NCBI GenBank assembly: GCA_030059665.1
Contig: JANVYR010000002.1
Span: 257,441-321,440 of the forward strand
DNA length: 64,000 nt
DNA from: Candidatus Calditenuis fumarioli
GTDB taxonomy: Archaea > Thermoproteota > Nitrososphaeria_A > Caldarchaeales > Calditenuaceae
Reading direction: 5' to 3'
The number at the start of each line of letters is the position of its first letter. The first letter of the stretch is position 1. Position numbers and translations under genes: made by a program. Below the pieces are notes generated by a model that did not search any database, was not told the origin of the DNA, and saw only the letters and a list, made by a program, of their open reading frames with translations. Shown piece by piece: positions 7,166-28,386 of this stretch.

Positions 7166-7224
7166 CCTCCGGACCACCTGACCTGAACGTAATAAAAGTG
7201 ATGGTCTGTAGCTTGGTCCTCGTA

Positions 7225-8465: not shown

Positions 8466-8655
8466 TTCCGGGAATCTCGCCTTAATTTTAGGATATTTTC
8501 AGCTCAACCTCCGCCTGCCCCCGTTTTTGCAAGTGGGTATATAAAGAGCAGACGGACCTACTTCATTACAGTTAAGTATTCCTGTAAAAGCTAATTATGC
8601 AGAACAAATGATTTCCGCGCGCTGAGGGCCGTCTTGAGAAGGCACGCAGGGCCAC
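8466..8655 (-). promoter_or_regulatory. CRISPR leader 1 with TATA box (minus-strand TTTATATA about 85 nt upstream of first repeat)
   Basis: About 190 bp, 92% identical to the sequence following array 2; contains gggtatataaagagcag on + strand. Confidence 0.6.
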
Positions 8656-8883: not shown

Positions 8884-9543
8884 TCAGATTAGCTGCAACA
8901 TCCCCTTGAGCGTCACCGATACCCTGAGCCTCCGCTCGGCGAGCTCAAGCCTCACGAGGTTCATGTGCTCGAGCCTTCTGACGATCTTCCACGCGGTGGT
9001 TTTGGGAATACCGAGCCGTCTCACCACCTCACCGAGCTCGACTTCCTCTCCCCCTAGATCGACGATCTCCCTCAGCACCGACATCTCCCTTCTGGGCAAT
9101 GTCACCCGATCGATGTCGCCAGCGCTGAAGGCGAAGTAAGCGTCGCGGTACTCGAGGTCGACCTCCACCTGGACCTGACCGCTGACGTCCTGGGGCAAAA
9201 GGAGTGCCGCGAGCAGGGCCTCGATCACGAGCCCCCTCATCCCGCCGCCCAGAACGAGAACCACAGCACCGTGGTTCCCTACCGCGGAAATGAGCACGGA
9301 CTTGATCGCCCTCATCGCGTCCACGAATCTGGTGGGATCCACCCTATGGACTACGGGCTCTATCCCGACGAACTTCGCCAGGAACTGCCTTAGGCTCGAG
9401 AGCGCCGCCTCCCCCCTCTCGTCCCTGGTCCCGGTCTCAGGCATGATTGCGGCAACGCCTGACAACCCCTCAGCGTAGTGTCTCAGCACCGACCTCAGGA
9501 CCGGACGTTCTTCGAACCCCAACGTCGCCACGATGTACACCAT
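8884..9543 (-). CDS. csa3: CRISPR-associated regulator Csa3 (CARF + wHTH)
   Basis: MVYIVATLGFEERPVLRSV N-terminus typical of Csa3 CARF domain, C-terminal wHTH (LGIPKTTAWKIVRRLE); divergent from cas operon. Confidence 0.7.
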   Translation of the reverse strand: MVYIVATLGFEERPVLRSVLRHYAEGLSGVAAIMPETGTRDERGEAALSSLRQFLAKFVGIEPVVHRVDPTRFVDAMRAIKSVLISAVGNHGAVVLVLGGGMRGLVIEALLAALLLPQDVSGQVQVEVDLEYRDAYFAFSAGDIDRVTLPRREMSVLREIVDLGGEEVELGEVVRRLGIPKTTAWKIVRRLEHMNLVRLELAERRLRVSVTLKGMLQLI

Positions 9544-9640: not shown

Positions 9641-10105
9641 ATGGGCATGGAGTCAGTCTCAGGGATTGTGAATCTTCTGAGGTTCTTCGTCGAGAGCGAG
9701 AGGTACAGCGTGGTCGACAAGTTCGCGAACGCGCTCTCCCCAGAAACCGTGTCGCAAGCCCTGTACGAGGCTCTGAGGATCGCTCGGACGCTCGAGAAGC
9801 AGGAGGTGGTTGTGACCATCAAGGACGAAAGGACCGGAAAGACGTACACCATCCCCTGCTGGGAGATCGGGAGGGTAAGCGCCCCCGGCAGGTATCCTGG
9901 CATGGTGGGCAAACTCGTAGAGGTACTAAAGGGAGATGTGAGGATCGAGCCCGGCGCCACCGTTTACTGCGTACGGAGGGGCGAGATACCCAGTGAGGAC
10001 GAGGTGAACAGGCTCCTCTCACACGAGGATCCCGTTAAGCTAGCGAAGCTGATCGCCATTCAGGCCTATGCCGAGACCAGCAGGAGGAGGGGTGAGGGCG
10101 AATGA
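9641..10105 (+). CDS. csa5: Type I-A small subunit Csa5 (putative)
   Basis: 154-aa helical protein immediately upstream of cas7 with 4-nt overlap, the canonical csa5 position. Confidence 0.55.
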   Translation: MGMESVSGIVNLLRFFVESERYSVVDKFANALSPETVSQALYEALRIARTLEKQEVVVTIKDERTGKTYTIPCWEIGRVSAPGRYPGMVGKLVEVLKGDVRIEPGATVYCVRRGEIPSEDEVNRLLSHEDPVKLAKLIAIQAYAETSRRRGEGE

Positions 10106-11151
10106 CGGCTTACGTCAGCCTATCCGCTAGGGTCCTGGTCAACGTCGAGGCGCTCAATATGGCTGAGAGCGTCGGCAACTACATAAAACACAGGAGGGTC
10201 CCGGTCGTCGTCGAGGAGGACGGCTCGACGGTCGTGAAGTACGTCCCAGCGGTGAGCGGCGAGTCTGTAGGTCACGGATACCAGGCGATCCTTGGCCAGC
10301 TTGCGAGGCAGGCAGGCCTACCTGTCTGCGATAACTGCTACAAGGAGGTCTTCACGAAGCACGCCTCAAAGGAGATGTTCGGTACCTCAGACTGGGAGCG
10401 GAAGCTCAAGGAGCTCATCGGGAAGAAGGACGGGTTCAGCCCGACGCAATTCGAGGCGGAGGTGATTAGGAACTGCGTCGTTGAGGACTTGGGAGGCTTC
10501 CTTTACGCTGAGGAGCCTTTCCAGGTCAAGAGGTCGTCCCTCTTCTCAACAGGGTACCTCATACCAGCAGCGGACGCGCTGAGGTCGGTTGCAGTGGAAC
10601 CCCAGTTCCACGTGAGGTACTCGCCGGCCAGACCAGAGGAAGGACAGGCCATCTACTACGTAGAGATCGGATCCGCCGTCTACACTTTGAGCTTCGTCAT
10701 AGACGTTGCCAGGATCGGATGGACCAAGCTTGCAGAGGTCAAGGACGTGATAGGCGAGGCAGAGCGAAAGAAACGCGTTGAGGTAGCATTGAAGTCGCTC
10801 GCTGCGATGATCGTGGGTCCTCTCTTCGGAGCTAAGCGTACCAGATTCCTACCGAGCTGGGAAGTCAGGAGCATCGTCGCGGCCCTATCTGGGCCGATGC
10901 CCTTCATCACATCGCCCGGCCACACCAAGGCTTACCTCTCATCGACCGCGTTGAGGGCAAAGGAGTTCGTCAAGGCGATGAATCACGGCAACACGGACCT
11001 GAAGCAACAGGTGACGATATACTACTACAACGGCGAGGGGCTCACGACACCCTCAGAGGACGTCTCGCCAGCCGTCCTGAAGCCAGGTTTCGCGAGCCCA
11101 GAAGAGCTGTTCGCAACGCTCATCACCGACGTGGTGGGCGTCAGTGGTTAA
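10102..11151 (+). CDS. cas7: Cas7 (Csa2) type I-A backbone subunit
   Basis: YVSLSARVLVNVEALNMAESVGNYIKHRR hallmark N-terminus. Confidence 0.9.
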   Translation: MTAYVSLSARVLVNVEALNMAESVGNYIKHRRVPVVVEEDGSTVVKYVPAVSGESVGHGYQAILGQLARQAGLPVCDNCYKEVFTKHASKEMFGTSDWERKLKELIGKKDGFSPTQFEAEVIRNCVVEDLGGFLYAEEPFQVKRSSLFSTGYLIPAADALRSVAVEPQFHVRYSPARPEEGQAIYYVEIGSAVYTLSFVIDVARIGWTKLAEVKDVIGEAERKKRVEVALKSLAAMIVGPLFGAKRTRFLPSWEVRSIVAALSGPMPFITSPGHTKAYLSSTALRAKEFVKAMNHGNTDLKQQVTIYYYNGEGLTTPSEDVSPAVLKPGFASPEELFATLITDVVGVSG

Positions 11152-11965
11152 GGTCCTTCACGTGAAGGCTACAGCACCTTGGGGATGGTCCATTAAGGCT
11201 CCAGGACAGTCCGCTGCGCAGACACCGATCCCTGTACCTCCCCCGAGCACTCTGTTGGGGGCCCTCGCCTACCCGTACTTCACCTCCAAGGGATGGCCGG
11301 AGCTGATTTTCGAGGATGGGGCGTACTACAGCCCGGCCTATAAGCTGCTGGAGCAGGTTAGCTATGCAGCGTTCGGGATATCGACGTCCGTTGCGACCGT
11401 CCATCAGGACCTGACCAAGAACGTCATTGCCCCTTACCTTCGGCAACCTCATCGGAAGATCAGTTCTAACTGGTTCGGGGCGCAGGCAATGGGCAAAACC
11501 ATTAACCCTAACGGCAGAATAGAGATAGCGTATGTTTTGAGACCTGGAGCTGATGAAGCTGGCCTGTTAAAGGCAGCTTGGTCGATAACTAGGCTAGGAT
11601 CGAAAGAGGGAATTATAGCTGTGGAGGACGCATCGATTCAGGAAGTTGTCCCCGCAGAAATGAGGTTAGCGACCACGTCTTTCTACGCACCCTATTCCTG
11701 TGTTGAAGTTATTGAACCTGGTGGTGAAATAATCGAGTTCTGGGATTACAGGGATCCAAGGGCCTACATTTACGGCAACACAGAGAGGCGCAGGGGGAGG
11801 GGTGCGAAGCGCGAAGAAGAACGCATACCCTCAAGCACCATGAAGTTCGTCGTCCCAATGGAGAAAGGGCCATATGGCGGAAAGATGAGCGTTAGGGTAA
11901 AGGAGGAGGGGGTAATACTCAAACTCAGAGAGACGAGCTTGATTGTTCCTCGTGATATGTTATGA
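11144..11965 (+). CDS. cas5: Cas5a
   Basis: IPVPPPSTLLGALAYPYF Cas5 signature; GTG start. Confidence 0.85.
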   Translation: MVKVLHVKATAPWGWSIKAPGQSAAQTPIPVPPPSTLLGALAYPYFTSKGWPELIFEDGAYYSPAYKLLEQVSYAAFGISTSVATVHQDLTKNVIAPYLRQPHRKISSNWFGAQAMGKTINPNGRIEIAYVLRPGADEAGLLKAAWSITRLGSKEGIIAVEDASIQEVVPAEMRLATTSFYAPYSCVEVIEPGGEIIEFWDYRDPRAYIYGNTERRRGRGAKREEERIPSSTMKFVVPMEKGPYGGKMSVRVKEEGVILKLRETSLIVPRDML

Positions 11966-13050
11966 ACGGATTTACCATATCAATCCCACCACTCTCTACA
12001 TTCGCATACAAGCTAGCCGAGTTAGCAGCGGTTTACCTCGGATTAGATCGCGAGCCGGACCGGTTCGTCGTAACAGACCTCACGGCCTTCAAGGATCGTC
12101 TTAGACAGGTTGTCGAGACTGCCAGGGATATGCGGGTTAGGATCCAATTCACCGGGAACGACAACAGGTATTTTGTCAGCAGCTATTCTGACTGGCTAAG
12201 ATTGAACAAGTATTCTTCACCCCTTGATCTTTTATCCAAATATGCGGAAACTGTGGATACTCTTGTAAATGATAGGAGACTATTCTCCCCGCCGAGCATC
12301 TTAAAGATAAATTTCTATGAATACGAGAGAAGAATGGGCCTGAAGGACTCCAAAGCAGAGCTGCGATTAGACGGTCACCAAATTGCGCTCTGCCTCGCAG
12401 GAGCTCACATCGCCTTAACTAACAGGGTGGGTGATAACATCGCTGTGTTTTTATTGCTTCCTCGCACGCCTTCATTGATCGTCCTGAAGGAGGGCGAGAG
12501 GCTGAGGAGAACCCATGAGCGATTGAGGGAGGCCCTGCGGCATGTCATCCGGGGAAAGGAGATTCCACCTACGAGCGTTATGCTGCTCTACCTCTCAGCC
12601 TCGCTAATCTTGAAGGGTGATGTACACGACGATGGCGTCTTCGGGTCGATGGCGCTGGTACAGGAGAGTGGTAATAGAGCTTCGATATTATCCGTCGACG
12701 ACATCACTACTCATGGTTTGGTGCGGCTGCTTAGGGATAATGAGCGCCGTGCTGCAAGCGCCTGTCTGACCCTTATCGACGCTTACTTAGACGTCAGAAG
12801 CAGGAATATGGGAAGCGATTTCGTTAGGCTAATAGAGGGATCGAGCAGTAACCTCCTCGTCTATTCGATCTCGGGCTCGCTCGATGCCCTCTACAACGCT
12901 GTCTCGGGATTCGATAGGCTCGCGAGACTATTCCGCGACCCCCAGACTGTCAGCAAGCTGCGTATGAAAGCTGAAACCGCATCATGGGTAGCCCGTTCAG
13001 CCGATATCTTGTCGGCTCACCTAGCTGAGACGTACAAGGTCTCCATATGA
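11962..13050 (+). CDS. cas8a: Putative Cas8a' (Csa4-like large subunit)
   Basis: 362-aa ORF between cas5 and cas3' with overlapping stops/starts; no nuclease or helicase motif; assignment by position only. Confidence 0.4.
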   Translation: MNGFTISIPPLSTFAYKLAELAAVYLGLDREPDRFVVTDLTAFKDRLRQVVETARDMRVRIQFTGNDNRYFVSSYSDWLRLNKYSSPLDLLSKYAETVDTLVNDRRLFSPPSILKINFYEYERRMGLKDSKAELRLDGHQIALCLAGAHIALTNRVGDNIAVFLLLPRTPSLIVLKEGERLRRTHERLREALRHVIRGKEIPPTSVMLLYLSASLILKGDVHDDGVFGSMALVQESGNRASILSVDDITTHGLVRLLRDNERRAASACLTLIDAYLDVRSRNMGSDFVRLIEGSSSNLLVYSISGSLDALYNAVSGFDRLARLFRDPQTVSKLRMKAETASWVARSADILSAHLAETYKVSI

Positions 13051-14876
13051 GGCACCTCTTGCAGGTTGCGGTCTCGTTCTTCGAGAAGGAGATATCTGCG
13101 GGAAGGGTGCCCCTTGTGGTAGTTGACGCGCCGACGGGTTACGGCAAGACGAGTGCCGCTCCCAAGTTCTTTGAGGCCTCCATGGATCAGCTCTCCACAC
13201 GTCTTATTCACGTCCTCCCCATGAGGAGCCTAGTAAAGAGGGCGGTAAGCTACGCCGGGAAGCAAGGGCTTTTCCGCAGCCTGGGAATAGTGGATGAACA
13301 ACTCGGCTACCAAGCCTCAATTGAGCTCGGAGAGCTGAAGAGCCCACAATTCCTGAGCATGGTAATCTACTCGACCTTCGACAGCTTCGTCTACAATCTC
13401 TTCAAGCTGAACGTCGCCGAATCCATTTGGAAGGACTCAATTCATTACGAGGTACCGCGGGGGATGATATTCACAGCTACTGTTGGGCTCGATGAGGTCC
13501 ATCTCTATGGAGGCGACCCTGGAGCTCCCCAACCGAAGGGCTTCGATGCCCTCATTGCCTCAATTGCAGCCCTCGCGAAGGCACTCGTTCCAACTTACGT
13601 CTTGAGCGCGACGATGCCTCGCATGCTTATCGAAGAAATCAAGCGACGTATCGACGGGATATTCAGCTTGAAAGGAAGACTTTCGATTGGGGTCTTCGTC
13701 TTCGACGCTTATGCAAGAGATTTGGGCAATAACTTCATCCTTGACGAGGAATACTTGTCACAAGCTCTTAACACTCTGTGGAGAACCAGTCTCGTAGGAG
13801 ATGAGGAGGAGTTCGGGAGAATGATGCTAGAGGAGGTAGGGCGTTCAGACGAGAGGCGGAAAATGCTCGTCGTGCGGAACACGCCAGAGAAGGCCGCCGA
13901 AACGTACAACCTCCTCGTACAAAGAGCTGGACTTACACCGGGAAGGGACATAGTGTTGCTGCATGGGAGGATGTGCCAAGAGGATAGAGAAAAGGCGGAG
14001 GAGGTATTGGACAGATTGGACAGCGCTAGGGTCGTAGTTGCTACACAGGTCATAGAGGCAGGTGTAACGATCAGCGGGGCCTCTATATTATTCACTGATG
14101 CAGCGGCGCCCACCTCCCTTGCTCAGAGGGCAGGGAGACTAGCGAGGAATGGTGAGACGGAGGCAGACGTGGTCGTCCTTCAAGGGGACGGTGACGGCGT
14201 CTATGAGGAGAAGCTGGTAAGGAGGACATGTGAGCTTATTCGTGCGGTCACAGACGGAGGAAGGGGAATAGATTGGAGGGTGCCAACGGTCGGGCAGAGG
14301 GCGCTCCCAAACGGACTGACAAGTTACAAAACAATCATTGAAGAAGCCTATGCTGGCGAGGAGGTGCAATCGGAAGGACGGCTTCAAACTCATCTGGAAA
14401 TCCTTGATGAGGAAATACATCTAGGCGCGAGGGATGCGAAGATCGTTGAATCTCATTTCTGCGGTCTCGTAAGGGAATCGCTCTTGGTCCCCGTGTACGT
14501 CGGGCCGCTGGACGGCAACTCAGCTCCTGAAGACAAGGAGATCGAGCGATGGCTTGTTACCTGCAGCCTCGGTTGGCTCGCCAAAAGGTTTGATCGGATC
14601 ATCGAGAAAGGAGAGGATGGGTTCAAAGCCATTTTATCGATCAGACGCAAAGGGGAGACCTACAAAGCTGTGGGTCACGTAAAACTCGACGACTTCCTTT
14701 CAGCACGAGAGCAGGACTTCTGCGCGTTTTTCACCGAGCACATTAGGAGGCTTAAGCCGCTCGTCTCGCTGAAGGGAACGACAGGGGTGCCGCAGGACGC
14801 AAGTGTCTCCCTCGTCGCGTTCGTCTGCAGGGAAGGCGTTTACCTGAGGGGGCTGGGTCTCCTTGACCCGATATAG
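13047..14876 (+). CDS. cas3: Cas3' helicase (SF2)
   Basis: VVDAPTGYGKT Walker A, DEVH box, 609 aa. Confidence 0.9.
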   Translation: MRHLLQVAVSFFEKEISAGRVPLVVVDAPTGYGKTSAAPKFFEASMDQLSTRLIHVLPMRSLVKRAVSYAGKQGLFRSLGIVDEQLGYQASIELGELKSPQFLSMVIYSTFDSFVYNLFKLNVAESIWKDSIHYEVPRGMIFTATVGLDEVHLYGGDPGAPQPKGFDALIASIAALAKALVPTYVLSATMPRMLIEEIKRRIDGIFSLKGRLSIGVFVFDAYARDLGNNFILDEEYLSQALNTLWRTSLVGDEEEFGRMMLEEVGRSDERRKMLVVRNTPEKAAETYNLLVQRAGLTPGRDIVLLHGRMCQEDREKAEEVLDRLDSARVVVATQVIEAGVTISGASILFTDAAAPTSLAQRAGRLARNGETEADVVVLQGDGDGVYEEKLVRRTCELIRAVTDGGRGIDWRVPTVGQRALPNGLTSYKTIIEEAYAGEEVQSEGRLQTHLEILDEEIHLGARDAKIVESHFCGLVRESLLVPVYVGPLDGNSAPEDKEIERWLVTCSLGWLAKRFDRIIEKGEDGFKAILSIRRKGETYKAVGHVKLDDFLSAREQDFCAFFTEHIRRLKPLVSLKGTTGVPQDASVSLVAFVCREGVYLRGLGLLDPI

Positions 14877-15729
14877 AGTATATGCTTGGCACTCGGTCCT
14901 GCTATCCAAACACCTCCTGAACGTTTACAGGGTCTTTCGCTACCTCTTCGATCCTGAAACGCGGGTGATCGCCCGCAAGATCGCTCTCCTAAAAGCCATG
15001 AACCCTACTCCGGAATTAGAGGAGGAACTCGAAAAGGTCATTCACGTGGCAGTAATCCTTCACGACTCGGGTAAGGGTCTGGAGAAGTACCAAGAAAGGG
15101 TGAGGAACTGCATCTCTAAGGTGGGAGAACGTATCACGGATGATACGCGATGCTTCTGCAGCTTCAGATGGCACGAGACAGTTTCCGCCCAAATTTACGC
15201 GTCATATGTCCAGTACTACTTGTTGAAAAAGCTTGCAGGAGACCCGACACCCGCACACATATTTGCAGCGGTCGTGGGGCTCTTCTCGATCCTCCACCAT
15301 CACCATGCCATGCGGTTGATCTATCAAGGTCGTTGGAGGGAAGAGGTTAACGGTTGCGGGCTAGCGGATGGAGCGGTCGACGAGATATCTTTAGCGCTCA
15401 GAGGAGCAGGGTTCCCGCCGCTTCACGAGGTCATTCCGAACTTGGACTTGGACAACGTGAGGATGGCTGGTTCTACGGCCGCAAACCAGCTGCCCCGAAT
15501 CATCGAAGGTAAAGGGAAAGGGGTGGGTTTGCTGGTCGAAGAGGTGAATCGCAGCAGAAGCTCGCTCAAGTTCCACGAAATGGTCACTTCGCGGCTCGTG
15601 ATAGCAGACATAATCGCATCGAGTCTCGAGAGGAGAGGGGAGTTGAAGGGTTATGCCGCCGAGCTGGCCCGCGAGCTGAGGCTCAGTATAGACGATCTTA
15701 GGGCACTTGTGGAGGGTGCGAGAGAATGA
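14863..15729 (+). CDS. cas3HD: Cas3'' HD nuclease
   Basis: ILHDSGK HD motif, HHHH cluster, 288 aa, overlaps cas3' end. Confidence 0.8.
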   Translation: MTRYRVYAWHSVLLSKHLLNVYRVFRYLFDPETRVIARKIALLKAMNPTPELEEELEKVIHVAVILHDSGKGLEKYQERVRNCISKVGERITDDTRCFCSFRWHETVSAQIYASYVQYYLLKKLAGDPTPAHIFAAVVGLFSILHHHHAMRLIYQGRWREEVNGCGLADGAVDEISLALRGAGFPPLHEVIPNLDLDNVRMAGSTAANQLPRIIEGKGKGVGLLVEEVNRSRSSLKFHEMVTSRLVIADIIASSLERRGELKGYAAELARELRLSIDDLRALVEGARE

Positions 15730-16631
15730 TCTTCGAGCTCCAGGCGAGGATTCTAGTTGACAGGCCGATAAGGTTCCAGAGCTTCTCGGGCTTCGCTGTA
15801 AGAGGCGTCTTCTACGAGCTCCTCAACAAGGTAGACGTTAATTACTCTGACCTTCTCCACATGGGTAAGAGCCTGGCACCGTTTGCGGTGAAACCCCTCT
15901 CCTTCGACATGGCGGCAACGCGCTACGTCTTCAGGCACATATTTCCCCACTCGAACGTCTGGCTGAGGATCCTGACCTTTGACAGAAGGGTGTTCGAGGC
16001 CTGGAGGAAAATACTGACGGAGGGAATGCTCGAGAGGGTCAGGCTGGTGGGGCACGAGTTCACGGTGGTTGAAATCAGGCTGGTCATCCACGACCCGATG
16101 GCGCTTTTCCCCGAGAACACCGCTGAATCCGATGCGGGTTTCAGGGTGAAGTTCGAGACGCCCACGTTCTTCAGGATGTCGTCGAGCACCATTACATCAC
16201 AGGTCCCGAAGATATCAAAGGTATCGATCAGGAATCTCAAACCAGCATACCGCTACGTTCCTCTCCCCCTACCGAGCCTCATGTTCAGAAGCCTCGCGCG
16301 GCTCTGGACCACTTTCGTAGATCCCACGTTCAATTACCGTGAGTTCCTCGAATGGGTCGATGCAGGGGGAATCGCGATCTCCGGTTTCCCTAGCGGGATC
16401 TACACCCAAAGGCTCTACGAGCATCCCACGCTCAACAAGTGGGTGGTCGGATTCACGGGCACCGTTTACTACTCCATTCCGGAGGACCTCCGCCAAAAGC
16501 GGATGGTGAGGACGGCAATGGGGCTGCTCAAATTCGGTGAGCTCTCGAACGTCGGAGGGGGTCGAACAGCTGGCTTCGGTTCCATGAAGTTGATTCAAAA
16601 TCAGCGGGTGAAGGGAAGGTGTTCTTCCTGA
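15726..16631 (+). CDS. cas6: Cas6 (type I-A)
   Basis: C-terminal glycine-rich loop FGELSNVGGGRTAGFGSM. Confidence 0.85.
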   Translation: MIFELQARILVDRPIRFQSFSGFAVRGVFYELLNKVDVNYSDLLHMGKSLAPFAVKPLSFDMAATRYVFRHIFPHSNVWLRILTFDRRVFEAWRKILTEGMLERVRLVGHEFTVVEIRLVIHDPMALFPENTAESDAGFRVKFETPTFFRMSSSTITSQVPKISKVSIRNLKPAYRYVPLPLPSLMFRSLARLWTTFVDPTFNYREFLEWVDAGGIAISGFPSGIYTQRLYEHPTLNKWVVGFTGTVYYSIPEDLRQKRMVRTAMGLLKFGELSNVGGGRTAGFGSMKLIQNQRVKGRCSS

Positions 16632-17560
16632 GGAGAGAGGAGTTCGAACGACGGATCCGCATCCTACGTGACCAGGGAGACGCGTCCGCGATCAGCCCTG
16701 AGCTGAGGGGATGGAACAACTCCAGGCCACCTGTGAAGCCCATAGGTCGTCATCTCCTGTCGGTCAGCGAGCTGGCATCAAGGTACTGCCCGACGATGAG
16801 GGACATTTACCTCCGTAGGGTTGCAAGGATTCAACCACCACCTAACTTCAAGACGTTTAGGGGCCTGGTATACCACTTCATCATAAACCAGCTGACTGTA
16901 AGGTCAAAGAGGCACATATTCGAGAGGGGTAAGATCGCTGGACCGGAGCTCTTCGAACTCCTCCTCGAGGAGGAGCCTGTAGCCGTCGAGTCGGCGGTTC
17001 GCGATGCATACGCGAGAGTCCAAATCTCCGAGGACGAGGCGCGATCGTTGACACCTCTCGCCTCAAAATTATACCGCTTCCTGGCACTCCAGGTAGCCGC
17101 TAGCGTGGACCTGACCCACAGCAGGTTTCCGCACGCTGATGTAGACTCGCTGGTTAACGAATCGATCCCTGCGGTAAGCGAGATGAAGGTGGACGGGTCG
17201 CTGGTTGGGTTAAGCAGAGAGCTCTCGGTCGACATCTACACCCCATACAACACAGTTATCGACGTGAAGACCGGCGACGTCAGGTCATTTCACAGGTACG
17301 TTGGTGCCGGATACGCGCTCGCGATCGAGTCTGATAAGGGAGTTGAGGTGAACTTCGGCATCACGCTGTATATCTCGGTTCAACCGTCCGCACCCGCACC
17401 TGAAGTCAAGGCGGATTACTACGTGATTGGCGACGAGCTGAGGCGCGAGTTCCTTGAGCTCAGGGACGAGGCGCAGTTGCTCATAGAGAGGGGCAAAGAC
17501 CCTGGTATGCCCGTTAGATGCCCGGAGTTCTGCCCGTACTACACCATCTGTAACGGGTGA
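16619..17560 (+). CDS. csa1: Csa1 (Cas4-like RecB nuclease, type I-A associated)
   Basis: DVKTGD nuclease motif and C-terminal CPEFCPYYTIC cysteine cluster, 313 aa. Confidence 0.7.
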   Translation: MFFLRREEFERRIRILRDQGDASAISPELRGWNNSRPPVKPIGRHLLSVSELASRYCPTMRDIYLRRVARIQPPPNFKTFRGLVYHFIINQLTVRSKRHIFERGKIAGPELFELLLEEEPVAVESAVRDAYARVQISEDEARSLTPLASKLYRFLALQVAASVDLTHSRFPHADVDSLVNESIPAVSEMKVDGSLVGLSRELSVDIYTPYNTVIDVKTGDVRSFHRYVGAGYALAIESDKGVEVNFGITLYISVQPSAPAPEVKADYYVIGDELRREFLELRDEAQLLIERGKDPGMPVRCPEFCPYYTICNG

Positions 17561-17561
17561 C

Positions 17562-18575
17562 ATGAGGAAGCTGGTCATATCGGATCCAGGGTTCTTCCTC
17601 GGCGTGAAGGAGGAGCGGATAGTAGTCAAAAGGGGTCGTGAAGTGGTCGCAGAGGTCCCTGCGGCCCAGATAAGCCACGTCTTCGTCTCTACTAGGGGTG
17701 CAGCCCTTTCGAGCGCAGCCCTGTCCCTCCTACTGCGGCACGGAGCGCAGCTCGTGCTTCTGGACAGCAGGGGAAGGCCGCTGGGAAGGCTGCTGCCCCT
17801 GGTGAGGAGAGGCCTCAGGGCAGTGGAGGCGCAAATAGCGGCGCTTAACGACGAGAGGGGAGTCGTTCTCGCGAAGGCATTTGCGTCCTCGAAGGCATTG
17901 AACCAGGCAGCTCTGCTGAGGTCCGCCGCGCATAACAGGATGGAGTCAAACCCGCAGCTGGCACGCAAGCTCCTCGAGGCCTCGGCCGAGATCAAGGGCT
18001 ATGCGGGGTCAATAGTCAGGGTAGAAGGGAAGCTTGAGGAGGTAAGGCCCGAGATCGTAAGGATGGAGGCTGCGGCTGCGGAGGTCTACTGGAGGGCGGT
18101 CGCAGACCTCCTGAGGGGAGTGGTCGATTTTCCGGGAAGGCGGAAGCGGTTTGACGAGCCCACCGATCCAGTCAACCTGCTACTGAATTACGGGTACGGT
18201 ATACTCTCATCGATCTGTTTCCTCGCGATCGAGCTCTCCTCGCTCGACCCCTATAGGGGATTCCTCCACGTCAATTCCCCGAGGAGGCCAGCGCTGGTGA
18301 TGGACCTGATGGAGGAGTTCAGGCAGACCGTCGTCGACAGGGCAGTATTCAGACTTCTCAGGGAGATCGACCCCAAATCCGTGGTTGGTGCTGAGGGCCT
18401 CTCCAGGGAGGCCAGAAAGCTTCTAGCGCTGAGGGTTCTCGAGAGGGTGAAGGAGAGGACCACGTTCCGCGGCCGTTCCCTTCCCATAGAGGCGCACATT
18501 CACCTTCAGGCGCGGAGGATACGTGGCTTCCTCCTCGGACACGAACCCGAGTACAGGGGGTACGTCGAGAAGTGA
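17562..18575 (+). CDS. cas1: Cas1 integrase
   Basis: LLNYGYGIL, DPYRGFLH, ALVMDLMEEFR motifs. Confidence 0.95.
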   Translation: MRKLVISDPGFFLGVKEERIVVKRGREVVAEVPAAQISHVFVSTRGAALSSAALSLLLRHGAQLVLLDSRGRPLGRLLPLVRRGLRAVEAQIAALNDERGVVLAKAFASSKALNQAALLRSAAHNRMESNPQLARKLLEASAEIKGYAGSIVRVEGKLEEVRPEIVRMEAAAAEVYWRAVADLLRGVVDFPGRRKRFDEPTDPVNLLLNYGYGILSSICFLAIELSSLDPYRGFLHVNSPRRPALVMDLMEEFRQTVVDRAVFRLLREIDPKSVVGAEGLSREARKLLALRVLERVKERTTFRGRSLPIEAHIHLQARRIRGFLLGHEPEYRGYVEK

Positions 18576-19437: not shown

Positions 19438-19514
19438 CCATTCAGAATCCATTAAACTTTCTTTGCTGGGTCCTCGGTCTGAACATCACCGCTATTATGG
19501 ACGCATTCGGTTTT

Positions 19515-20424
19515 CTTTCAACTCTCTTCGCGAGATTCCGGGGTGATGATACGGCCCGATGGGAACCCCGGCCAGTTCTGCTTTCAACTCTCTTCGCGAG
19601 ATTCGGGGGTGGTTGGCTCTGACCTCTCACGCGGCCGTTTATGACTTTCAACTCTCTTCGCGAGATTCGTTCGGGAAGGACGTCGTCGTTGCGATCTGCG
19701 AGTTCCATCCTTTCAACTCTCTTCGCGAGATTCAGGGTTCGGATTCGTTGAAGGCGCGCCGGAGCTGTTTGCTTTCAACTCTCTTCGCGAGATTCTTCGC
19801 GAAGGAGCTGGTAGCCTATTGGGTGTCCGAGAAGCTTTCAACTCTCTTCGCGAGATTCGCGGGACCTAGCGATAATAGGAGGCGCGCTGGTGGTCTTTCA
19901 ACTCTCTTCGCGAGATTCTTGGGAAGTGGGCAACTGGGTGTTCGGCTCGTTCGTGAGGGAGCTTTCAACTCTCTTCGCGAGATTCAATAAACAGGTTGCA
20001 GGATCTGTCGGCTCTATATGAGGCTTTCAACTCTCTTCGCGAGATTCTATTGCTCGGGAAATGCTGACGTCTGAGGAGATTGAACTTTCAACTCTCTTCG
20101 CGAGATTCATGTCTCTCGTGAGGGACGTTCTGAGCGGGAAGGTCAACTTTCAACTCTCTTCGCGAGATTCGAGCTTTTGGCTGCCGGTTATGCCGCTGTC
20201 GGCTATGAGCCTTTCAACTCTCTTCGCGAGATTCAGTCCATGGTGCCCCACCATGGATAGGCGGACTCCCTTACTTTCAACTCTCTTCGCGAGATTCTGC
20301 GTTGGGAGGTGAGGAAGCATCCGGAAGCTGACGCTACTTTCAACTCTCTTCGCGAGATTCGAGATACGCGGAGGCCGCCGAGATGCTCCAGGAAAAGATT
20401 CTTTCAACTCTCTTCGCGAGATTC
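19515..20424 (-). CRISPR. CRISPR array 2, 15 repeats of the same 24-bp repeat, spacers 36-43 bp
   Basis: Repeat starts at 19515,19581,19645,19710,19772,19835,19895,19962,20024,20085,20147,20211,20274,20337,20401; leader at high-coordinate end. Confidence 0.95.
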
Positions 20425-20615
20425 CGACCCCAATTTCCGGAAATCTCGCCTTAATTTTAGGATATTTTCAGCTCACCTCCGCCTGCCCACGTTTTTGCAA
20501 GTGGGTATATAAAGAGCAGGCGGACCTGCTTCATCGCAGTTAAGCATTCCTATAAAAGCTAATTATGCAGAACAAATGATTTCCGCGCGCTGAGGGCCGT
20601 CTTGAGGGGGCATGC
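20425..20615 (-). promoter_or_regulatory. CRISPR leader 2 with TATA box
   Basis: Near-duplicate of leader 1 (gggtatataaagagcag, gctaattatgcagaacaaatgatttccgcgcgctgagggccgtcttga). Confidence 0.6.
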
Positions 20616-22844: not shown

Positions 22845-23644
22845 CGGGCTTGGCCTCCGTCGGGCCCCTCGTCAGGGCTCGGGTGCTGGGCGCGGTCATC
22901 AGGGCGCTGAGGGAGTCCCCGGAGCTCGACCCCTCGAGGATCTCGGAGCTCTCTGGCGTGGCGCGGGAGGTCGTTAGGGAGCTTCTGGAGGTCTGGAGCG
23001 GCGGGACTGGCCGGCTCGACCAGACGAGGGTCATAGAGCTGGCGGCGGAGGCGCTCGAGAGGTCAGGCGGATCTGTCGAGGTGCTGAGGGCCCTCGGATG
23101 GTCGCTCTTCGAGGACCTGATAGGAGCGCTGCTGGAGAGGATGGGGCTCGAAACGCTGAGGGACGTGAGGGTGAAGGTGGGGAGGAGGTGGTGCCAGATC
23201 GACGTGGTGGCGCTGAGGGGAGGCGACGTCTACGCACTGGAGTGCAAGCACTGGATGAGGAGCGTCACGTCCTCCCTGATGGCCTCGATAGCTTCCTCCC
23301 ATCTGAGGCGCGTTGAGCTGCTCGAGGAGGGCCTCAGGTCGTCCCTCGGTGAGGGAGACGTGACCGTCCGGGTGGTTCCGGTGGCGGTGGCGCTGTACGT
23401 TCCACCCTCGACCGGCGAGGTCCTCTTCGTCCCGGTCCGCGCGCTGGCGAGCTTCCTCTCCGAGCACCCCGCAGCTCTCCCTTCTCCCCCCGTCAGGAGG
23501 TTGAAGTTAGGCAGGAGGCCCGACGCGTCCACCTTCACAAGGCCTCCGTTCAGGGCATCGAGGGAAGCGACAAGGCTCGACGCAGGGTTGACGAGGCTCG
23601 AGGACCACGCTGCTCAGCAGGGCCCGATGACCTCCAGGAGGTGA
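22841..23644 (+). CDS. Mrr-like restriction-endonuclease (PD-(D/E)xK) domain protein with N-terminal wHTH-like region
   Basis: GRRWCQIDVVALRGGDVYALECKHW matches Mrr_cat core (D...E.K); start overlaps cofE stop (GTGA). Confidence 0.5.
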   Translation: MTGLASVGPLVRARVLGAVIRALRESPELDPSRISELSGVAREVVRELLEVWSGGTGRLDQTRVIELAAEALERSGGSVEVLRALGWSLFEDLIGALLERMGLETLRDVRVKVGRRWCQIDVVALRGGDVYALECKHWMRSVTSSLMASIASSHLRRVELLEEGLRSSLGEGDVTVRVVPVAVALYVPPSTGEVLFVPVRALASFLSEHPAALPSPPVRRLKLGRRPDASTFTRPPFRASREATRLDAGLTRLEDHAAQQGPMTSRR

Positions 23645-23865
23645 CCGAGACCGATCGAGGGGATCCTCGACCTCCACGCCTCCCACTCGGCCTCGAAGTC
23701 GGGTGAGACCCTGGGCCTCCGGACGACGTCGTAGTAGTCGTACGGTTTGATGTCCAGCACAGAAGAGCCGGGCCAGGCGTCGAGCCAGAGGACCTCCAGC
23801 CTCGGCGGCTCCACCCTCGACAGCTCCACCACGCTCACCGCGATGGGGTTCGGCCTGGGAGGGTG
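23614..23865 (-). pseudogene. tsaA: tsaA (YaeB/TrmO-family) C-terminal fragment, 5'-truncated
   Basis: RPNPIAVSVVEL and LDAWPGSSVLDIKPY match the conserved RPNPIG and LDGTPvLDIKPY motifs from the C-terminal half of TsaA; the N-terminal 80-90 aa are missing and replaced by the tRNA-like fragment. Confidence 0.55.
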
Positions 23866-23883
23866 GCGCGAAGTTGATAGGGA

Positions 23884-23916
23884 GAACCGGAGGTCCCGGG
23901 TTCGAGTCCCGGCGGG
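23884..23916 (+). other. Orphan tRNA 3'-half-like fragment (T-arm ccggg-ttcgagt-cccgg plus acceptor 3' strand cgggccc and discriminator g)
   Basis: Canonical T-loop and acceptor 3' strand but no complementary 5' acceptor strand (gggcccg) or D/anticodon arms within 300 nt upstream. Confidence 0.5.
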
Positions 23917-23999
23917 CCCGCGAATATAATAGCTTTCCAATTATGAACGATGATTGGGCCGTAAGCATGAAAACAGAAAAGGAAAGAAAGGGGAGGGGT

Positions 24000-24935
24000 T
24001 TACGTCGTCAGCGAGTTATTAGGAAGAAGCCCTCTCCTCTTCAAGTATTCCTCGAGTCTCTTCCTCTTCCGCTCGATCGTGAAACCGACTTTCTCGTAGA
24101 ACGTCAGATTTGACTTCATTCTCACGCTGACATAGTAGGCGTCTTTTCTCGCTCTATACACTTTATCCGTCTTCTTCGGGTCTCTAAACGGTCTTCCTGC
24201 TCGGTGATGTAGTATCGGCTTCTCCGAAGTCGTCTCTATCCCGATCTTTTTCAGCAGATATATCACGTACTCCAACATCTTATAGTTGGTGTTAACCACC
24301 CCAATTTCACCATCTTTATGAGCATATCCCTCACTGTCAAAGAACCCCCGAAGGAACATTGCTATACATCTCTCGCAGTGCTCAACGTACGGTCTGATCC
24401 TCTCGATGTCTATGGGTTTCTTGAGCAGCTCGTAGAGTGTTCTGGACTGAACTTCGACGACCCATAAACTGTATTTATTTTGCCTTGGTATCGGAGGTTC
24501 CCTTCCCAGAACCTTAGCTAATCTCCTGCCAAATTCTTCGGCGAATTCCTTGTCCTTGACCGTCAATCCGACAAAGAATTTGTCATATCTAGGCGCCGAA
24601 ATACTCATCTTATAGACAGTACCGTCTCCAACTATTGCGCCAGCGATGTAAGCCAGATCTTCTGAAGGTTTCAGGAATTCTAATGTCGGTATTCTGATTC
24701 CGTTATAGGGAGAGTGTTTCCTATTTTTCCACCCGCTGAGAGTTGACTTGCGGATAGTAACGTTATATCTTCTCTTTATCTCCTTGATTATTTTGTTATA
24801 GCTCAATCCCTGTTTCCGGAGTTCAAGGAAGTCCTCGTGGATCCTTATCCTCAGTTCTCCCGGAAGGATAGTTCTTCTGCGCTTCCGTTTCAACTGACTG
24901 TGTGCGGAGGCTTCCGCGCTCATGACATCACCCAT
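24000..24935 (-). CDS. Free-standing LAGLIDADG homing endonuclease with N-terminal HTH-like region
   Basis: LAYIAGAIVGDGTV and FLRGFFDSEGY double LAGLIDADG motifs; GC about 45% versus more than 60% in flanks; the GC-rich 5' extension of ORF 24000..25172 is probably not coding. Confidence 0.7.
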   Translation of the reverse strand: MGDVMSAEASAHSQLKRKRRRTILPGELRIRIHEDFLELRKQGLSYNKIIKEIKRRYNVTIRKSTLSGWKNRKHSPYNGIRIPTLEFLKPSEDLAYIAGAIVGDGTVYKMSISAPRYDKFFVGLTVKDKEFAEEFGRRLAKVLGREPPIPRQNKYSLWVVEVQSRTLYELLKKPIDIERIRPYVEHCERCIAMFLRGFFDSEGYAHKDGEIGVVNTNYKMLEYVIYLLKKIGIETTSEKPILHHRAGRPFRDPKKTDKVYRARKDAYYVSVRMKSNLTFYEKVGFTIERKRKRLEEYLKRRGLLPNNSLTT

Positions 24936-26734
24936 GTGAATGGCAGAGGCAACGATTTCGGTTCCCTCAGCATGACGTCTATCCTTCTCAGCGTGTTCTC
25001 TATGGCCTTTTCTCATATCATCACCCTCCCCCTCTGGCTCTGAGAGACGGGCAGGACGAAGATCCTGCCCGACCCCTGCATCGGCTGAGTCAGGGCTTAC
25101 GGCCGGGGCCAGCCGACCCCTTCTCCCGGGGTCCGGGCCGGGATCGGAGGGACCGATCATATCCCTCCCCATGATGTTGGGGAGGCCGGCCTTCTAGGCC
25201 GGGACATCCCTCCGACCGGCCCTCCCCGGGGAAGGGTTGCCACAGAGGGGGTGAGGCGCCGTCCGACGTCAGCCTGATCCGGTGAGGATGGTCAGCTGGT
25301 GATCGCGATGGGGGTGAGGGCTTCTCCGCGCCCGACACCCGACCCCTTCCTCACCCGGTGGCCATCCGGAAGAGGAAGGTACTGGGCGGACGCGCATCGA
25401 TCCGGTCAGACTCGCCTATCCTCCTGAGCGCCGTCACCCGATGGGAGGGACCCCTGCACGCCGCGCCCTTCGCCCGGGTATGCCTGTCCCTCCTTTGGAC
25501 CCGGAGGCCGGCCTTGCCCGGGGATCACCGGATGACGGCGTTCAGGAGGACTTCTGGGATCATCGTGTAATCATCAGGTGATCGTCCGGTCCGGGACCTT
25601 TGCCGACCCCGTGTATACAAATGTGCACAAATGCATACATCCGTTCCTACCCCCTCTCCCCCTCCCTTTCGGGAAGAGGTGGGGGTCCTCAGAATGCCCC
25701 CTGGGGGTCTCAGAGCACCCCCCGGGGGGCCTCTCCCCTCCCTCCCCCTACCCCTGGTTGCCCCCTTTGGGACTAGGGCGGGGGATCGGTGAACCCCCAG
25801 TACCCCCTCCCTTCGACGGAGGATAGGGGATCCCTGAGGGCCATGAGGGGAGCCCCCTTCGCGCATGGTGGGGTCTCCTCGACGGGGTTCTCGGCGGTCC
25901 CGGTATCCGTGCCCAGAGTTCCCACGGCCCCCCGGACGGGGTTTTGAGACGGCCGTGGTACCCCGGGCCATCTACCGGCGGACGGGCTTGGGAACCCTGA
26001 AGGGCCATCGCCCCGGGCTTGTCCCCTCATCGCCCGTTCCCCCCTCCATCCGGAGGGGGTTATGGCGGTTAGCCCTGCCCCCCGGACGGGAGGCGGTGCC
26101 CTCACAGCGGACGCTCAGGCCCTCACATCCCCTGCTGGAAGCGCGGGGGATGCGGGACACCCGCCGCCGCCGTCTCTACGTCCGGGGCCAGAGGTGCTGG
26201 GAGGCCCCGGCGCACCAACCCCTCCCCCAGGATCCCCAGCACCCATGAGTTTGGTGGGTGCTCCGGGATTTGATCCCGGGGTGAGAGGAATAGTTCTCCC
26301 TCGACTCGGCTGACTTCCTCTTCCTCCGCCCTTCGTCTGTCTTCCGGGAGGGCTTAGGGCGATCGCCCTTCCCGGGGAGCCCCTTCTGCCCCTCCCATCC
26401 GGGACTCCCCCGCCGCCCCGGCATCCTGGGGCTACGGGCGGGCTCCCACTTCCCGCCGCTCCCTTCAGGGAGGCGAGGAGACGCTCTCGTCGTCCCCTCG
26501 CCGGGGGCAGCTCCCTTCACCGGAGGAGGTCCAGGGCCGCAACCCCTTTCGGGGCCTCGGCGCCGCCCCGCCGGCTTTCGTCGGCGGCCCCAACTCCTCC
26601 TCCAGCGCCGCCACCTTTCCGTGGCGACCGGGCCCCTCACGTGGCGGGCCTCGGGACCCGTGAGGAGGACCTTGAACCCTCTGTAAAGTGTAGTTCTGTC
26701 GACTTTACTTAAGCATTAGCATTCAACTGGACGT

Positions 26735-27108
26735 GATAGTGTCCGGATAAGCATCTCTACCCACCTCCGTTCCTCATCACATGATAGTAGATCGCGAAGA
26801 GGTTTAGGAATTGGTCTCATCGACAGCTATGCACCTCCTATATCTCGGCTCTGAGGCCACTGTTACCATAGAAGACACCTTCCTGGCAAGATAATGTACT
26901 GTTGATTCGCTTATAGGCTCAATAGCTATGCTGAGTACCTTGGCGACCCTCCTGCAGCTGCCGTGGAACACGTACTCTAGGACAGCTAAGACCTTGACCT
27001 CACGGCTTTTTTGTTGCGCTCGAGACGGCTCGAGATCAGGGCTATGACGTCCACGAAGACGACCATCGAAGACAGGCCTTTAAATGTATTCACTTATCCG
27101 GACACTAC
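26735..27108. mobile_element. Candidate MITE-like element bounded by 15-17 bp inverted repeats (tagtgtccggataag / cttatccggacacta)
   Basis: Inverted repeat read directly at 26735-26752 and 27092-27108, 340 bp apart, in an ORF-free AT-rich stretch. Confidence 0.35.
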
Positions 27109-27870
27109 CGAGATAGTTTAGAAGGCATTGATATACAACCTGTTGCTTAACGCGGCATGAACTTAGGAAACTGAGGCACGAGCTGGAGAAGAGGTAATAG
27201 AACTAGAGGAATTATGCCACAAGGCATGAGGCTGCAGAGGTTCGTCAAGGATTTCGCTCGATCCTGCCGTTTGGGATGCGGCGGGCGCCCGGCTTTGATG
27301 GCCCCATGATGGATTGATTCCGAGGAGAATTGGAGACAATATTAACTCAGGCAGGAGAGTCCTACTACGACGACGTTTACCTCATGGCGAGCACGGACGA
27401 GGAGGGATGGGATGAGGGAAGTAAGGGCCCTTGAGGAGAGGGTTTCCGCAGTCACAGGGTCCACCGGGAATCGCCAGCCACACCCAAAGAGCAGGAAACG
27501 GTCGGGTCTAATGACAAATCTTAGAAGTGTTTACCGTGTGGGGAAGGACGAGGGACTTCAGGACGTGGAAGGCGCAGATGATGGCTTATCTCGTCCGTCA
27601 ACCGCCCTCAAAGGAGCTGGACTCCCTGATAGACCAGCTTGAGAAGCTCCGTAGCAGGTGGTTATCGAGTCTTTAGCCGGCATCAGCAAGCATGAGAGCG
27701 CATCAGGCATTAAGATTCCACCAGAATTGTTACCATCGCAAGAGTAGGTCGAGGCGTGGTCTCGGGAGAGGGAGTGAGGGATGTCGTATTAGCAGTTTAT
27801 TAGGAGCTATGGCGTCGAGGTTTTCAGAATAAACAAGATCAATATCCCGCGCTGAACCCTATCCGGCGGC

Positions 27871-28386
27871 ATGGTGGGGCAGGTCACGGAGCTGATCAGG
27901 ACCAAGCTGGACTGGAGGAGCTTCTCGGAGAGGCCGGTGAGCAGGGAGGACGTGATCGCGATCCTCGACGCCGCGAGGTGGGCGGGCAGCGGCAAGAACA
28001 CCCAGCACTGGCGCTTCGTCCTGATAGAGGACAGAGAAGAGCTGAGGTGGCTGGCGGAGCACACGACGACGGGCCGGTGGCTCGAGGGCGCGGCCTTCGC
28101 GGTGATCGTCACCACAGACTCCAACATACCCTACCACATGCTCGACGCCGGCAGGGCGATAGCGAACATGCAGCTGGAGGCCTGGAGCAGGGGCATAACC
28201 TCCTGCATAACAACGGGCTACGACCAGTCGGTGATCAGGCAGAGGTACGGCATACCCGAGAAGAGGTCCGTCGACGCGATCGTCGGCTTCGGGTACCCCG
28301 ACAGGCCCCTGAAGGGGAAGAAGACGAGGAGGCCGCTGAGCGAGCTGGTCTACGTCGGACGGTACGGCAACCCGCTGAAGGTCTGA
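27871..28386 (+). CDS. Nitroreductase family protein
   Basis: SFSERPVSREDVIAILDAARWAGSGKNTQHWRFVLI and C-terminal nitroreductase fold motifs. Confidence 0.85.
   Translation: MVGQVTELIRTKLDWRSFSERPVSREDVIAILDAARWAGSGKNTQHWRFVLIEDREELRWLAEHTTTGRWLEGAAFAVIVTTDSNIPYHMLDAGRAIANMQLEAWSRGITSCITTGYDQSVIRQRYGIPEKRSVDAIVGFGYPDRPLKGKKTRRPLSELVYVGRYGNPLKV

Follow-up and report, generated by a model that had tools for sequence, protein, structure and literature searches.

The DNA analysed here is a 64,000-nucleotide stretch of the Candidatus Calditenuis fumarioli contig JANVYR010000002.1 (hereafter the window, to which all positions refer unless another locus is named). The organism is a hot-spring archaeon of the Aigarchaeota type within Nitrososphaerota. 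Between position 23614 and a nitroreductase gene on the plus strand (27871-28386), which is its right neighbour, lies an island holding a truncated trmO gene, the 3' part of a tRNA-Arg gene, a gene for a LAGLIDADG endonuclease, a GC-rich tract and a stretch of lower GC content. Every feature which the initial annotation had listed was found where it had been placed or close by. On balance we favour the view that the island is a composite around one copy, termed copy A, of a chromosomal, multi-copy, selfish LAGLIDADG homing-endonuclease element residing at the 3' ends of tRNA genes. A 4.5 kb region containing the island recurred with 99.87%-99.93% identity in seven metagenome-assembled genomes (MAGs) at NCBI, and parts of it were found on independent JGI/ENA contigs, so the island is not an assembly artefact. 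The sequence is itself MAG-derived and same-species contigs often break in or next to the element, several of them ending within the island upstream of the nitroreductase gene (window positions 26085, 26556 and 27152), as might be expected had mis-assembly or chimeric binning made the junction between trmO and the tRNA; however, that junction is part of the 4.5 kb which recurs at 99.9% in the seven MAGs and in the independent JGI contigs, and the chance of an artefact is negligible.

The endonuclease gene (24000..25160, minus strand) encodes 386 amino acids (PF14528, E=1e-17), has its own Shine-Dalgarno sequence and AUG, and its product is 99% identical to sequence P0001. The protein contains a low-complexity N-terminal extension (24931-25160), a region resembling a helix-turn-helix (HTH) and two LAGLIDADG motifs (..GAIVGDG.. 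and ..GFFDSEG..) and belongs to the single-chain double-motif class. G95 and D96 were invariant and E194 nearly invariant in an alignment of 17 relatives; both catalytic motifs are thus conserved and the enzyme looks active, while matches to I-DmoI, PI-PfuI and I-MsoI were weak (E 1e-3 to 1e-5). The low GC content previously ascribed to this double-motif open reading frame (ORF) within GC-richer DNA was confirmed, its core having 45.8% GC against a window mean of 60.5% in the composition profile. Substitutions between copies fell on the three codon phases as 97/43/53, indels in the ORF were multiples of three and the ratio of non-synonymous to synonymous substitution rates (dN/dS) was 0.13-0.36 among five paralogues, indicating that the endonuclease proteins have been maintained. 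The N-terminal extension is translated as well, its frame being preserved across indels of 15 and 18 nt. As had also been noted, the gene is free-standing, with no integrase, rRNA or host gene around it; we found no surrounding intron or intein, no flanking exons and no match to an Rfam intron or rRNA at E<=10. Excision of leader and ORF through a bulge-helix-bulge structure was considered and rejected, the scan having returned low-complexity purine/pyrimidine pairings only. Some relatives of the endonuclease (P0106, P0139, P0147, P0149, P0153, P0160) carry a transposase-type HTH (PF13565, PF13276) fused to the LAGLIDADG domain, and further relatives are found in MAGs under the labels Nezhaarchaeales and Jordarchaeales.

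The gene is followed by a conserved 3' tail (23921..23999, minus strand), in which a pyrimidine/oligo-T run, ACCCCTCCCCTTTCTTTCCTTTTCTGTTTTC, precedes the junction to the tRNA end. The tail (~75 nt) is 91%-95% identical among copies A, B and C compared with 67%-84% inside the ORF. A motif of the ACCCCTCCCCTTTCTTTCCTTTTCTGTTTTC type also follows the stop codon in the copies of archaeon HR02 and in other copies, it occurs only once in the window, and it probably acts as a terminator.

At least four or five paralogues of the element are present in this species. Copies B (P0002, loci L011/L012) and C (P0003, L013-L017) were found in the same MAGs as copy A and their proteins share ~70% amino-acid identity with its endonuclease; copy D (P0005, L079) is in one of the MAGs with copies A-C, and copy E (P0007, L080) was seen on metagenome contigs only, one of them from a copy-A metagenome, its genome of origin being unproven. 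Alignments of copy A with B (82% over 2.2 kb) and with C (79% over 1.77 kb) span the GC-rich tract, the ORF and the conserved tail; copies D and E share with copy A the ORF and tail only. The part common to the HR02 copies is smaller than in A-C, being the ORF, ~150 nt upstream of it and the tail, and some HR02 copies are frameshifted, which fits the decay phase expected in the life cycle of a homing endonuclease. No relatives of the endonuclease family were found in the IMG/VR, phage and plasmid collections, and we therefore rejected a viral or plasmid origin of the element; the similarity of the island to viruses or plasmids which the initial annotation had suggested looking for was likewise absent from these collections. 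Indirect support for a homing function comes from the multi-copy state, from purifying selection together with decayed copies, and from a fixed niche, which is described below.

Intact tRNA genes convergent with the endonuclease gene were observed downstream of copy B (Asn-like), copy C (Thr GGU) and copy E (Ser GGA); in L014 an intact convergent tRNA-Pro adjoins one more LAGLIDADG gene. The niche was surveyed at 60 loci, one genome per species, of which 52 belong to Nitrososphaerota. A reverse-complement T-loop motif was present within 700 nt downstream of the gene at 41 of these 52 loci, where approximately two matches are expected by chance, and ARAGORN confirmed about 30 of them. Five of the 11 negative loci have less than 200 nt of downstream sequence, which gives 41 of 47 assessable loci (~87%). 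The distance from stop codon to tRNA 3' end was mostly 4-110 nt, with the tRNA convergent with the endonuclease gene, and the tRNAs beside the family span many isoacceptors in both Aigarchaeota and Thaumarchaeota.

The initial annotation had read the island as a decayed element or insertion scar whose tRNA piece was an SSV/pNOB8-type attachment (att) site. Under this explanation a plasmid or virus would have integrated by means of an integrase with the tRNA gene as attB, the tRNA piece would be one of the att repeats, and the cargo left behind would be the endonuclease together with the non-coding DNA. A tRNA fragment does stand at the edge of foreign-looking DNA, debris of an insertion sequence (IS) or miniature inverted-repeat transposable element (MITE) is nearby, and an attP/attB recombination model has been published for the tRNA-Thr locus of C. 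subterraneum (PMC3293823). However, neither the ORFs of the island nor those of the paralogous loci include an integrase (tyrosine recombinase), the tRNA piece has no second copy in the 64-kb window at up to 3 mismatches, and none of 28 related loci carries the tRNA end again in direct orientation (12 nt or more) in the 3.9 kb upstream of the gene, nor did any locus show an integrase. In HR02 the mobile unit is the ORF and short flanks only, the viral and plasmid collections hold nothing similar, and the tRNA piece is on the wrong side to be the displaced 3' repeat of an element to its right. The geometry of an att site is not seen either: relative to the tRNA position the element is on the 3' side, which is also where it stands beside the intact tRNAs of the paralogous copies, and this suggests that a later deletion or rearrangement removed the 5' half. 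Of the earlier reading, the mobile-element setting was upheld and the tRNA piece is a true breakpoint remnant, but the att scar was not borne out, and we regard integration of this type as quite unlikely. Because of the family niche and the absence of repeats and integrase, the "orphan" half is best taken as the leftover of the tRNA beside copy A rather than as an att repeat.

This remnant of a tRNA-Arg(UCU)-like gene lies on the plus strand at 23871..23920 and consists of an intron remnant (23871-23884) and exon 2 (23885-23920, tRNA position 38 to the discriminator base at 23920), with a perfect T arm and acceptor strand. The orphan 3' half reported earlier is real, but the bounds proposed for it (23884-23916) were too narrow and omitted the intron remnant. 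It is not a complete cloverleaf with anticodon, as only the intron remnant and positions 38-73 are present, and it was called by neither Rfam nor ARAGORN, giving only a weak tRNA-like match. A full tRNA with an odd intron at 23851-23919, suggested by a weak mascRNA-like match, was rejected, the upstream part being trmO coding sequence. A search for full-length tRNAs sharing the 3' end, as the initial annotation had recommended, was made with the 29-nt T-arm/acceptor string, which was matched exactly in 92 metagenome contigs, nearly all of them with tRNA-Arg genes of hot-spring archaea, and in the comparison of the 80 contigs which were fetched many of these genes had an intron at 37/38. Since the match extends 5' of exon 2, with AAGTTGATAGGGAGA-ACCGGA agreeing at 16/18 positions with the intron and exon 2 of the tRNA-Arg(TCT) gene of L145, we take 23871-23920 to be what is left, on the 3' side, of a tRNA-Arg(UCU)-like gene with an intron, which by this comparison is broken at the anticodon/intron boundary. 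The alternative also named in the initial annotation, a full tRNA with an intron, was thus right about the origin of the piece and wrong about its completeness, the 5' exon being absent from the window and from the paralogous and related loci examined.

The other side of the break is the C-terminal remnant of trmO/tsaA (tRNA m6t6A37 methyltransferase family; 23614..23874, minus strand), identified with Pfam TrmO_N and a homologue alignment. The ORF at 23614-23940 (minus strand) matches only positions 65-111 of the 116-position TrmO_N profile, and alignment with a 154-aa homologue (homologues P0123-P0125) showed that approximately the first 78 residues are absent, homology beginning at codon ACT (23874-23872); the truncation of tsaA was thereby confirmed by both methods. 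The trmO and tRNA remnants, on opposite strands, overlap by the 4 nt AAGT, which points to a microhomology junction. Neither the N-terminal half of trmO nor a hidden integrase was found in the AT-rich part of the island, where six-frame translation gave no Pfam match. The search for an intact trmO in relatives gave five matches only, and the one with 70% identity (L088 1-255) begins 30 nt from a contig end; it is called as a 74-aa fragment and may or may not share the truncation.

The break at a canonical intron position, with 14 nt of intron-like sequence kept 5' of exon 2, would also suit a split tRNA-Arg of the kind known from Nanoarchaeum or Caldivirga, with this piece as its functional 3'-half gene and the intron remnant as the leader pairing with the transcript of a 5' half encoded elsewhere. 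Rearrangements of this kind have been proposed as a route to split tRNAs by Sugahara et al. (PMC3293823), and the metagenomes containing this species yielded no intact tRNA-Arg(UCU) ending in this 3' half, although 80 of the 92 matching contigs were fetched and the search would have overlooked an intact gene whose 3' half differed slightly. On the other hand, the 50 nt upstream of the remnant, which are trmO coding sequence, contain no AT-rich promoter-like stretch, position 39 is A where intact relatives have G, and no 5' half was seen in the window or the loci examined. A functional split gene is in our judgement very unlikely.

Other tRNA genes beside the element are breakpoints too. Two strains of this species, L013 and L014, share copy C and, counted from its 3' end, two-thirds of the adjoining tRNA-Thr(GGU) at 99.9% identity, and diverge inside this tRNA gene at about position 24-26 (L013, 9288-9362; L014, 9286-9386). 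In L014 the tRNA-Thr(GGU) has a ~30-nt intron in the D arm and the upstream genes differ from those of L013. The tRNA-Thr(GGU) locus of C. subterraneum is heterogeneous as well (Sugahara 2012, PMC3293823), and at the sequence level the divergence of L013 and L014 mirrors that heterogeneity. A breakpoint at an intron position of the neighbouring tRNA was noted in three cases, namely the tRNA-Arg described here, tRNA-Thr(GGU) in L013/L014 and the published C. subterraneum gene. A ~40-nt remnant of a LAGLIDADG 3' tail, CTAACCCCTCCCCTCTCTTTTTCAATGCC (tRNA strand), without ORF, was also seen in L014 at ~9440-9490, 5' of the intron-bearing tRNA-Thr(GGU).

On the opposite side of the endonuclease gene lies the GC-rich tract (25020-26660, mean 69.7% GC), initially described as 1.6 kb of ORF-free sequence with more than 70% GC. 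The mean is marginally lower than this, and the sequence is non-coding from 25161 onward only, the first ~230 nt (24931-25160) being the coding sequence for the N-terminal extension of the endonuclease. From 25161 upward the substitutions between copies were spread evenly over the three phases (25/21/30) and indels were of 14, 1, 4, 10, 20 nt and the like, not multiples of three, from which we conclude that this part is non-coding. The check for a conserved protein, raised in the initial annotation, gave the same answer: ORFs of the tract had no Pfam match, no codon periodicity and no preference for indels in multiples of three, and a protein-coding role was rejected. From its sequence features the tract is instead predicted to be a structured 5' leader of ~1.5 kb on the strand of the endonuclease.

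The proximal leader core (25161..25600, minus strand) is highly conserved among copies A, B and C, with 86%-99% identity over 440 nt (100-nt bins) compared with 67%-84% in the ORF interior, and with synonymous divergence (dS) of 0.46-0.77 among the copies it is far more conserved than the synonymous sites of the ORF. It contains a hairpin with 25-nt arms (25419-25443 / 25526-25550, inverted repeat I2), and its minimum free energy (MFE) has a z-score of -3.3. The core is followed by an AT-rich palindromic island, TGTATACAAATGTGCACAAATGCATACA (25605..25642, 45% GC, palindrome I7), which is present in copies A and B and absent in C and is a possible internal promoter. The distal leader (25643..26665, minus strand) has 71.6% GC and is predicted to form many hairpins capped by loops which read as GNRA on the minus strand. 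Copies A and B are 84%-100% identical here; A and C are alignable over the 5' 430 nt only, with ~55%-75% identity, and in this alignment 22 of 104 predicted pairs were compensatory compared with 0-4 in slid controls. The alifold energy was -140 kcal/mol for the endonuclease strand, -117 for the antisense strand and -65 +/- 6 for column-shuffled alignments, and the single-sequence MFE was -620 for the minus strand against -567 for the plus strand. In the leader of C. subterraneum L086 (4300-4800) we observed four repeats of a hairpin motif around CGTGCTTA(T/G)(G/C)CATG(G/A)C, which was not seen in the leader of the window.

Searches of Rfam 15 over 23500-28000 on both strands returned nothing at the gathering threshold, the best matches being at chance level, and with no match at E<=10 we rejected the possibility that the GC-rich tract contains a known RNA such as an rRNA fragment or a group I/II intron. 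By nhmmer there were no homologues of the leader outside the species, the three-way junction described below being the only part detectable elsewhere. These results bear on an explanation in which the GC-rich RNA would be the primary entity, similar to a ribozyme, intron or scaffold, with the LAGLIDADG protein as its maturase or homing partner. Such an entity would account for ~1.5 kb of RNA with strong covariation, GNRA loops and a preference for the minus strand, and for a core more conserved than the synonymous sites of the ORF; LAGLIDADG genes are classically intron-borne (I-DmoI relatives) and homing endonucleases are encoded in C. subterraneum rRNA introns. We nevertheless hold it to be unlikely: neither Rfam, with its group I/II models, nor the bulge-helix-bulge scan supplied a candidate, there are no flanking exons or host gene, and most members of the endonuclease family lack the RNA, which was encountered only in copies A, B and C of this one species.

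At its end the leader is predicted to fold, over ~110 nt (25131..25241, minus strand), as a three-way junction composed of a closing stem and two hairpins. In hairpin 2 the sequence CCUCCCC pairs with a Shine-Dalgarno-like GGGGAGG on the 3' strand, 5 nt further on is the AUG, and the AUG and first codons are contained in the junction and closing stem, the first codons forming the 3' strand of the stem. A covariance model (R1) built from copies A, B and C matched C. subterraneum L086 at the start of its ORF (33.5 bits, E 3e-4), and the same architecture with different stem sequences was found in Ca. Geocrenenecus (L029) and at the second LAGLIDADG gene of L014. In the alignment, which was fitted to the model, 21 of 28 pairs were changed on both sides compared with 2-7 in slid controls. 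By analogy with transposase leaders, the junction may be a translational occlusion device: with the ribosome-binding site and AUG sequestered, translation is probably low or conditional. A tRNA-Ser which ARAGORN called at this junction was dismissed as a miscall. Complementarity of the leader to neighbouring tRNAs was also looked for and was limited to a single 12-nt match in copy A, where hairpin 1 (25172-25188, minus strand) contains CCGGCCUAGAAGGCCGG, complementary at 12/12 positions to the anticodon arm of tRNA-Arg(UCU); this is probably due to chance, because neither copy B nor copy C has a similar match to its own tRNA.

Beyond the leader, the sequence from 26666 to 27870 has 51% GC. It had been described as an AT-rich desert without credible ORF, and the six-frame search agrees in giving no Pfam match, but the GC content is low only in comparison with the surroundings. 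Within it is a 371-bp MITE-like element (26737..27107) with perfect 15-bp terminal inverted repeats, TAGTGTCCGGATAAG (26737-26751 / 27093-27107, I1), for which we observed no clear target duplication at the flanks and no ORF with a Pfam match. Its structure suggests a MITE or else a deletion derivative of an IS. Blocks related to it occur in three other genomes, among them homologous ones in the HR02 loci L019 and L020, and the 15-mer TAGTGTCCGGATAAG was also found at L020 3297-3311 and L065 3894-3908, so that in three different genomes it lies 0.1-1.6 kb upstream of a LAGLIDADG gene; either the small element is common in these genomes or it has a preference for these leaders. The remaining ~760 nt are a spacer (27108..27870, 53% GC) without Pfam match in six frames, part of which (27110-27227) resembles HR02 L019 4962-5078 in a partial blastn match. 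In L019 (1668-5078) the blocks matching 26743-27107 and 27110-27227 are 2.8 kb apart, and the interval holds ORFs, one with a RuvC-like 'VVIEDLD' stretch reminiscent of TnpB; this HR02 segment is a candidate for the complete element from which the MITE-like one derives. Of what the initial annotation had called unexplained non-coding cargo, the GC-rich tract is now assigned to the structured leader and part of the AT-rich stretch to the MITE-like element, while 760 nt remain without assignment.

These data can be brought together in a model in which the endonuclease would recognise a tRNA gene by its conserved 3' end together with the flank next to it. Alleles free of the element would be cut and repaired by copying the element in, the insertion itself destroying the recognition site, and a relaxed reading of the T-arm/acceptor part would allow spread to different tRNAs. 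Copy A would have inserted beside tRNA-Arg(UCU), which later would have been broken at its intron/anticodon, possibly with a role of the enzyme, and joined to the middle of trmO through the 4-nt microhomology, with loss, during repair of the junction, of the 5' exon on the tRNA side and of the N-terminal half on the trmO side. The MITE-like element and spacer would complete the composite on the leader side of copy A.

Several points weigh against this model. No element-free (empty-site) allele was recovered, and we infer homing at tRNA flanks; the gap of 4-110 nt between stop codon and tRNA is variable, looser than would be expected of strictly site-specific insertion. The leader was found by sequence search in the three paralogues A, B and C of one species only and is therefore not a general part of the endonuclease family, and its transcription from the minus strand is predicted from sequence. 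Its conservation could reflect gene conversion rather than function: identity in the leader is a mosaic in which some blocks are 100% identical between particular pairs of copies, so that conversion may contribute beside constraint. The covariation in the distal leader comes from two sequences and a structure predicted from those two, and the model-fitted alignment of the three-way junction includes two antisense echo rows. With these points in mind we still judge a multi-copy selfish element at tRNA 3' ends to be the better account of the island. A bolder claim would be that of a new class of archaeal mobile element, in which free-standing LAGLIDADG enzymes home to tRNA 3' flanks across Nitrososphaerota and, through cutting and repair, directly cause tRNA breakage, intron gain and splitting, here with a ~1.5-kb RNA whose own function (stability, targeting or catalysis) would go further than control of translation; this we consider doubtful, if conceivable.

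Other features of the window were noted in passing. Two CRISPR arrays at 7193-8506 and 19483-20475, with ~35 repeats in total of the 24-nt sequence CTTTCAACTCTCTTCGCGAGATTC, are each followed by a near-identical flank of ~220 nt (8429-8647 and 20398-20615) and enclose a gene cluster at 9641-18575. A CRISPR spacer targeting the island was sought and rejected, the one 12-nt match being roughly at chance level. A 5S rRNA gene standing alone is located at 57875-57993 and a gene for tRNA-Ile(GAT) at 54956-55031, and no LAGLIDADG element adjoins the latter.

The origin of interrupted, split and permuted archaeal tRNA genes is a long-standing question for which viral and plasmid integrases have been the usual suspects. 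Here a different agent, a homing-endonuclease family, is found beside tRNA damage and adjoins tRNAs at ~87% of assessable loci in Aig- and Thaumarchaeota. Two RNA elements absent from Rfam accompany it, a three-way junction which is predicted to occlude the ribosome-binding site and is conserved across genera, and a large GC-rich structured leader. For annotation, the element accounts for breaks in MAGs, "orphan" tRNA halves and truncated genes at these sites. Already known are LAGLIDADG enzymes as such, endonuclease genes standing free near tRNAs (T4 SegB) and the case of tRNA-Thr in C. subterraneum. In the literature searched, it appears that neither a family-wide, cross-phylum placement of archaeal LAGLIDADG genes at tRNA 3' ends without att repeats, nor the conserved three-way-junction leader, nor the 1.5-kb structured RNA has been described.

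The closest published parallel is the disruption of tRNA-Thr(GGU) in C. subterraneum (PMC3293823), where an 'a-b' unit separates a tRNA fragment from an intron-bearing tRNA. The unit consists of a 545-bp non-coding block 'a' (6 copies) and a divergent ORF 'b' (7 copies), which was termed a putative recombinase and was not identified as LAGLIDADG (PMC3293823). The archaeal group is the same, and in both systems a multi-copy conserved non-coding block is followed by a divergent ORF, the 86%-99% identity of our leader core and 67%-84% of the ORF paralleling a conserved 'a' and a divergent 'b'. Both 'a-b' and copy A adjoin a tRNA gene, with tRNA fragments and intron gain at the breakpoint. However, 'b' is co-directional with and 5' of its tRNA whereas the gene described here is convergent and 3', and the mechanism proposed by Sugahara et al. 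is recombination by integrase at att sites, which the present data do not support. The likeness concerns the architecture as described, homology of 'b' to this LAGLIDADG protein being unproven, and two LAGLIDADG paralogues of C. subterraneum were among the top 120 matches, against seven copies of 'b'. Integration of the SSV1/pNOB8 type resembles the present case in using tRNA genes as landing sites and leaving tRNA fragments at borders, but here there is no integrase, no att direct repeat and no viral or plasmid cargo.

The endonuclease itself belongs to the same superfamily as I-DmoI, I-PorI and PI-PfuI and shares with them the single-chain double-motif form and the acidic residue ending each motif. 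Similarity to these enzymes is weak, however, the context is not that of an intron, bulge-helix-bulge, rRNA or intein, and an HTH-like region and a low-complexity extension have been added at the N-terminus. In its setting the gene resembles segB of phage T4, which encodes a free-standing GIY-YIG homing endonuclease within a tRNA gene cluster and, during co-infection, favours transmission of itself and of the genes around it, the tRNA region of genomes lacking it being cut. As with SegB, the endonuclease gene stands among tRNA genes and is neither intron- nor intein-borne, but SegB is a phage GIY-YIG enzyme whereas the family described here is LAGLIDADG and occupies archaeal chromosomes, with several diverged copies beside different tRNAs and a long leader. 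The leader finds its nearest analogy in the transposase mRNAs of IS10 and IS50, in which leader structures occlude the ribosome-binding site. As in those mRNAs, a stem is predicted to mask the Shine-Dalgarno sequence together with the start codon in a gene of selfish type and would be expected to limit translation, especially from read-through transcripts, but in this archaeon the occluding structure is a three-way junction which ends a folded leader of ~1.5 kb.

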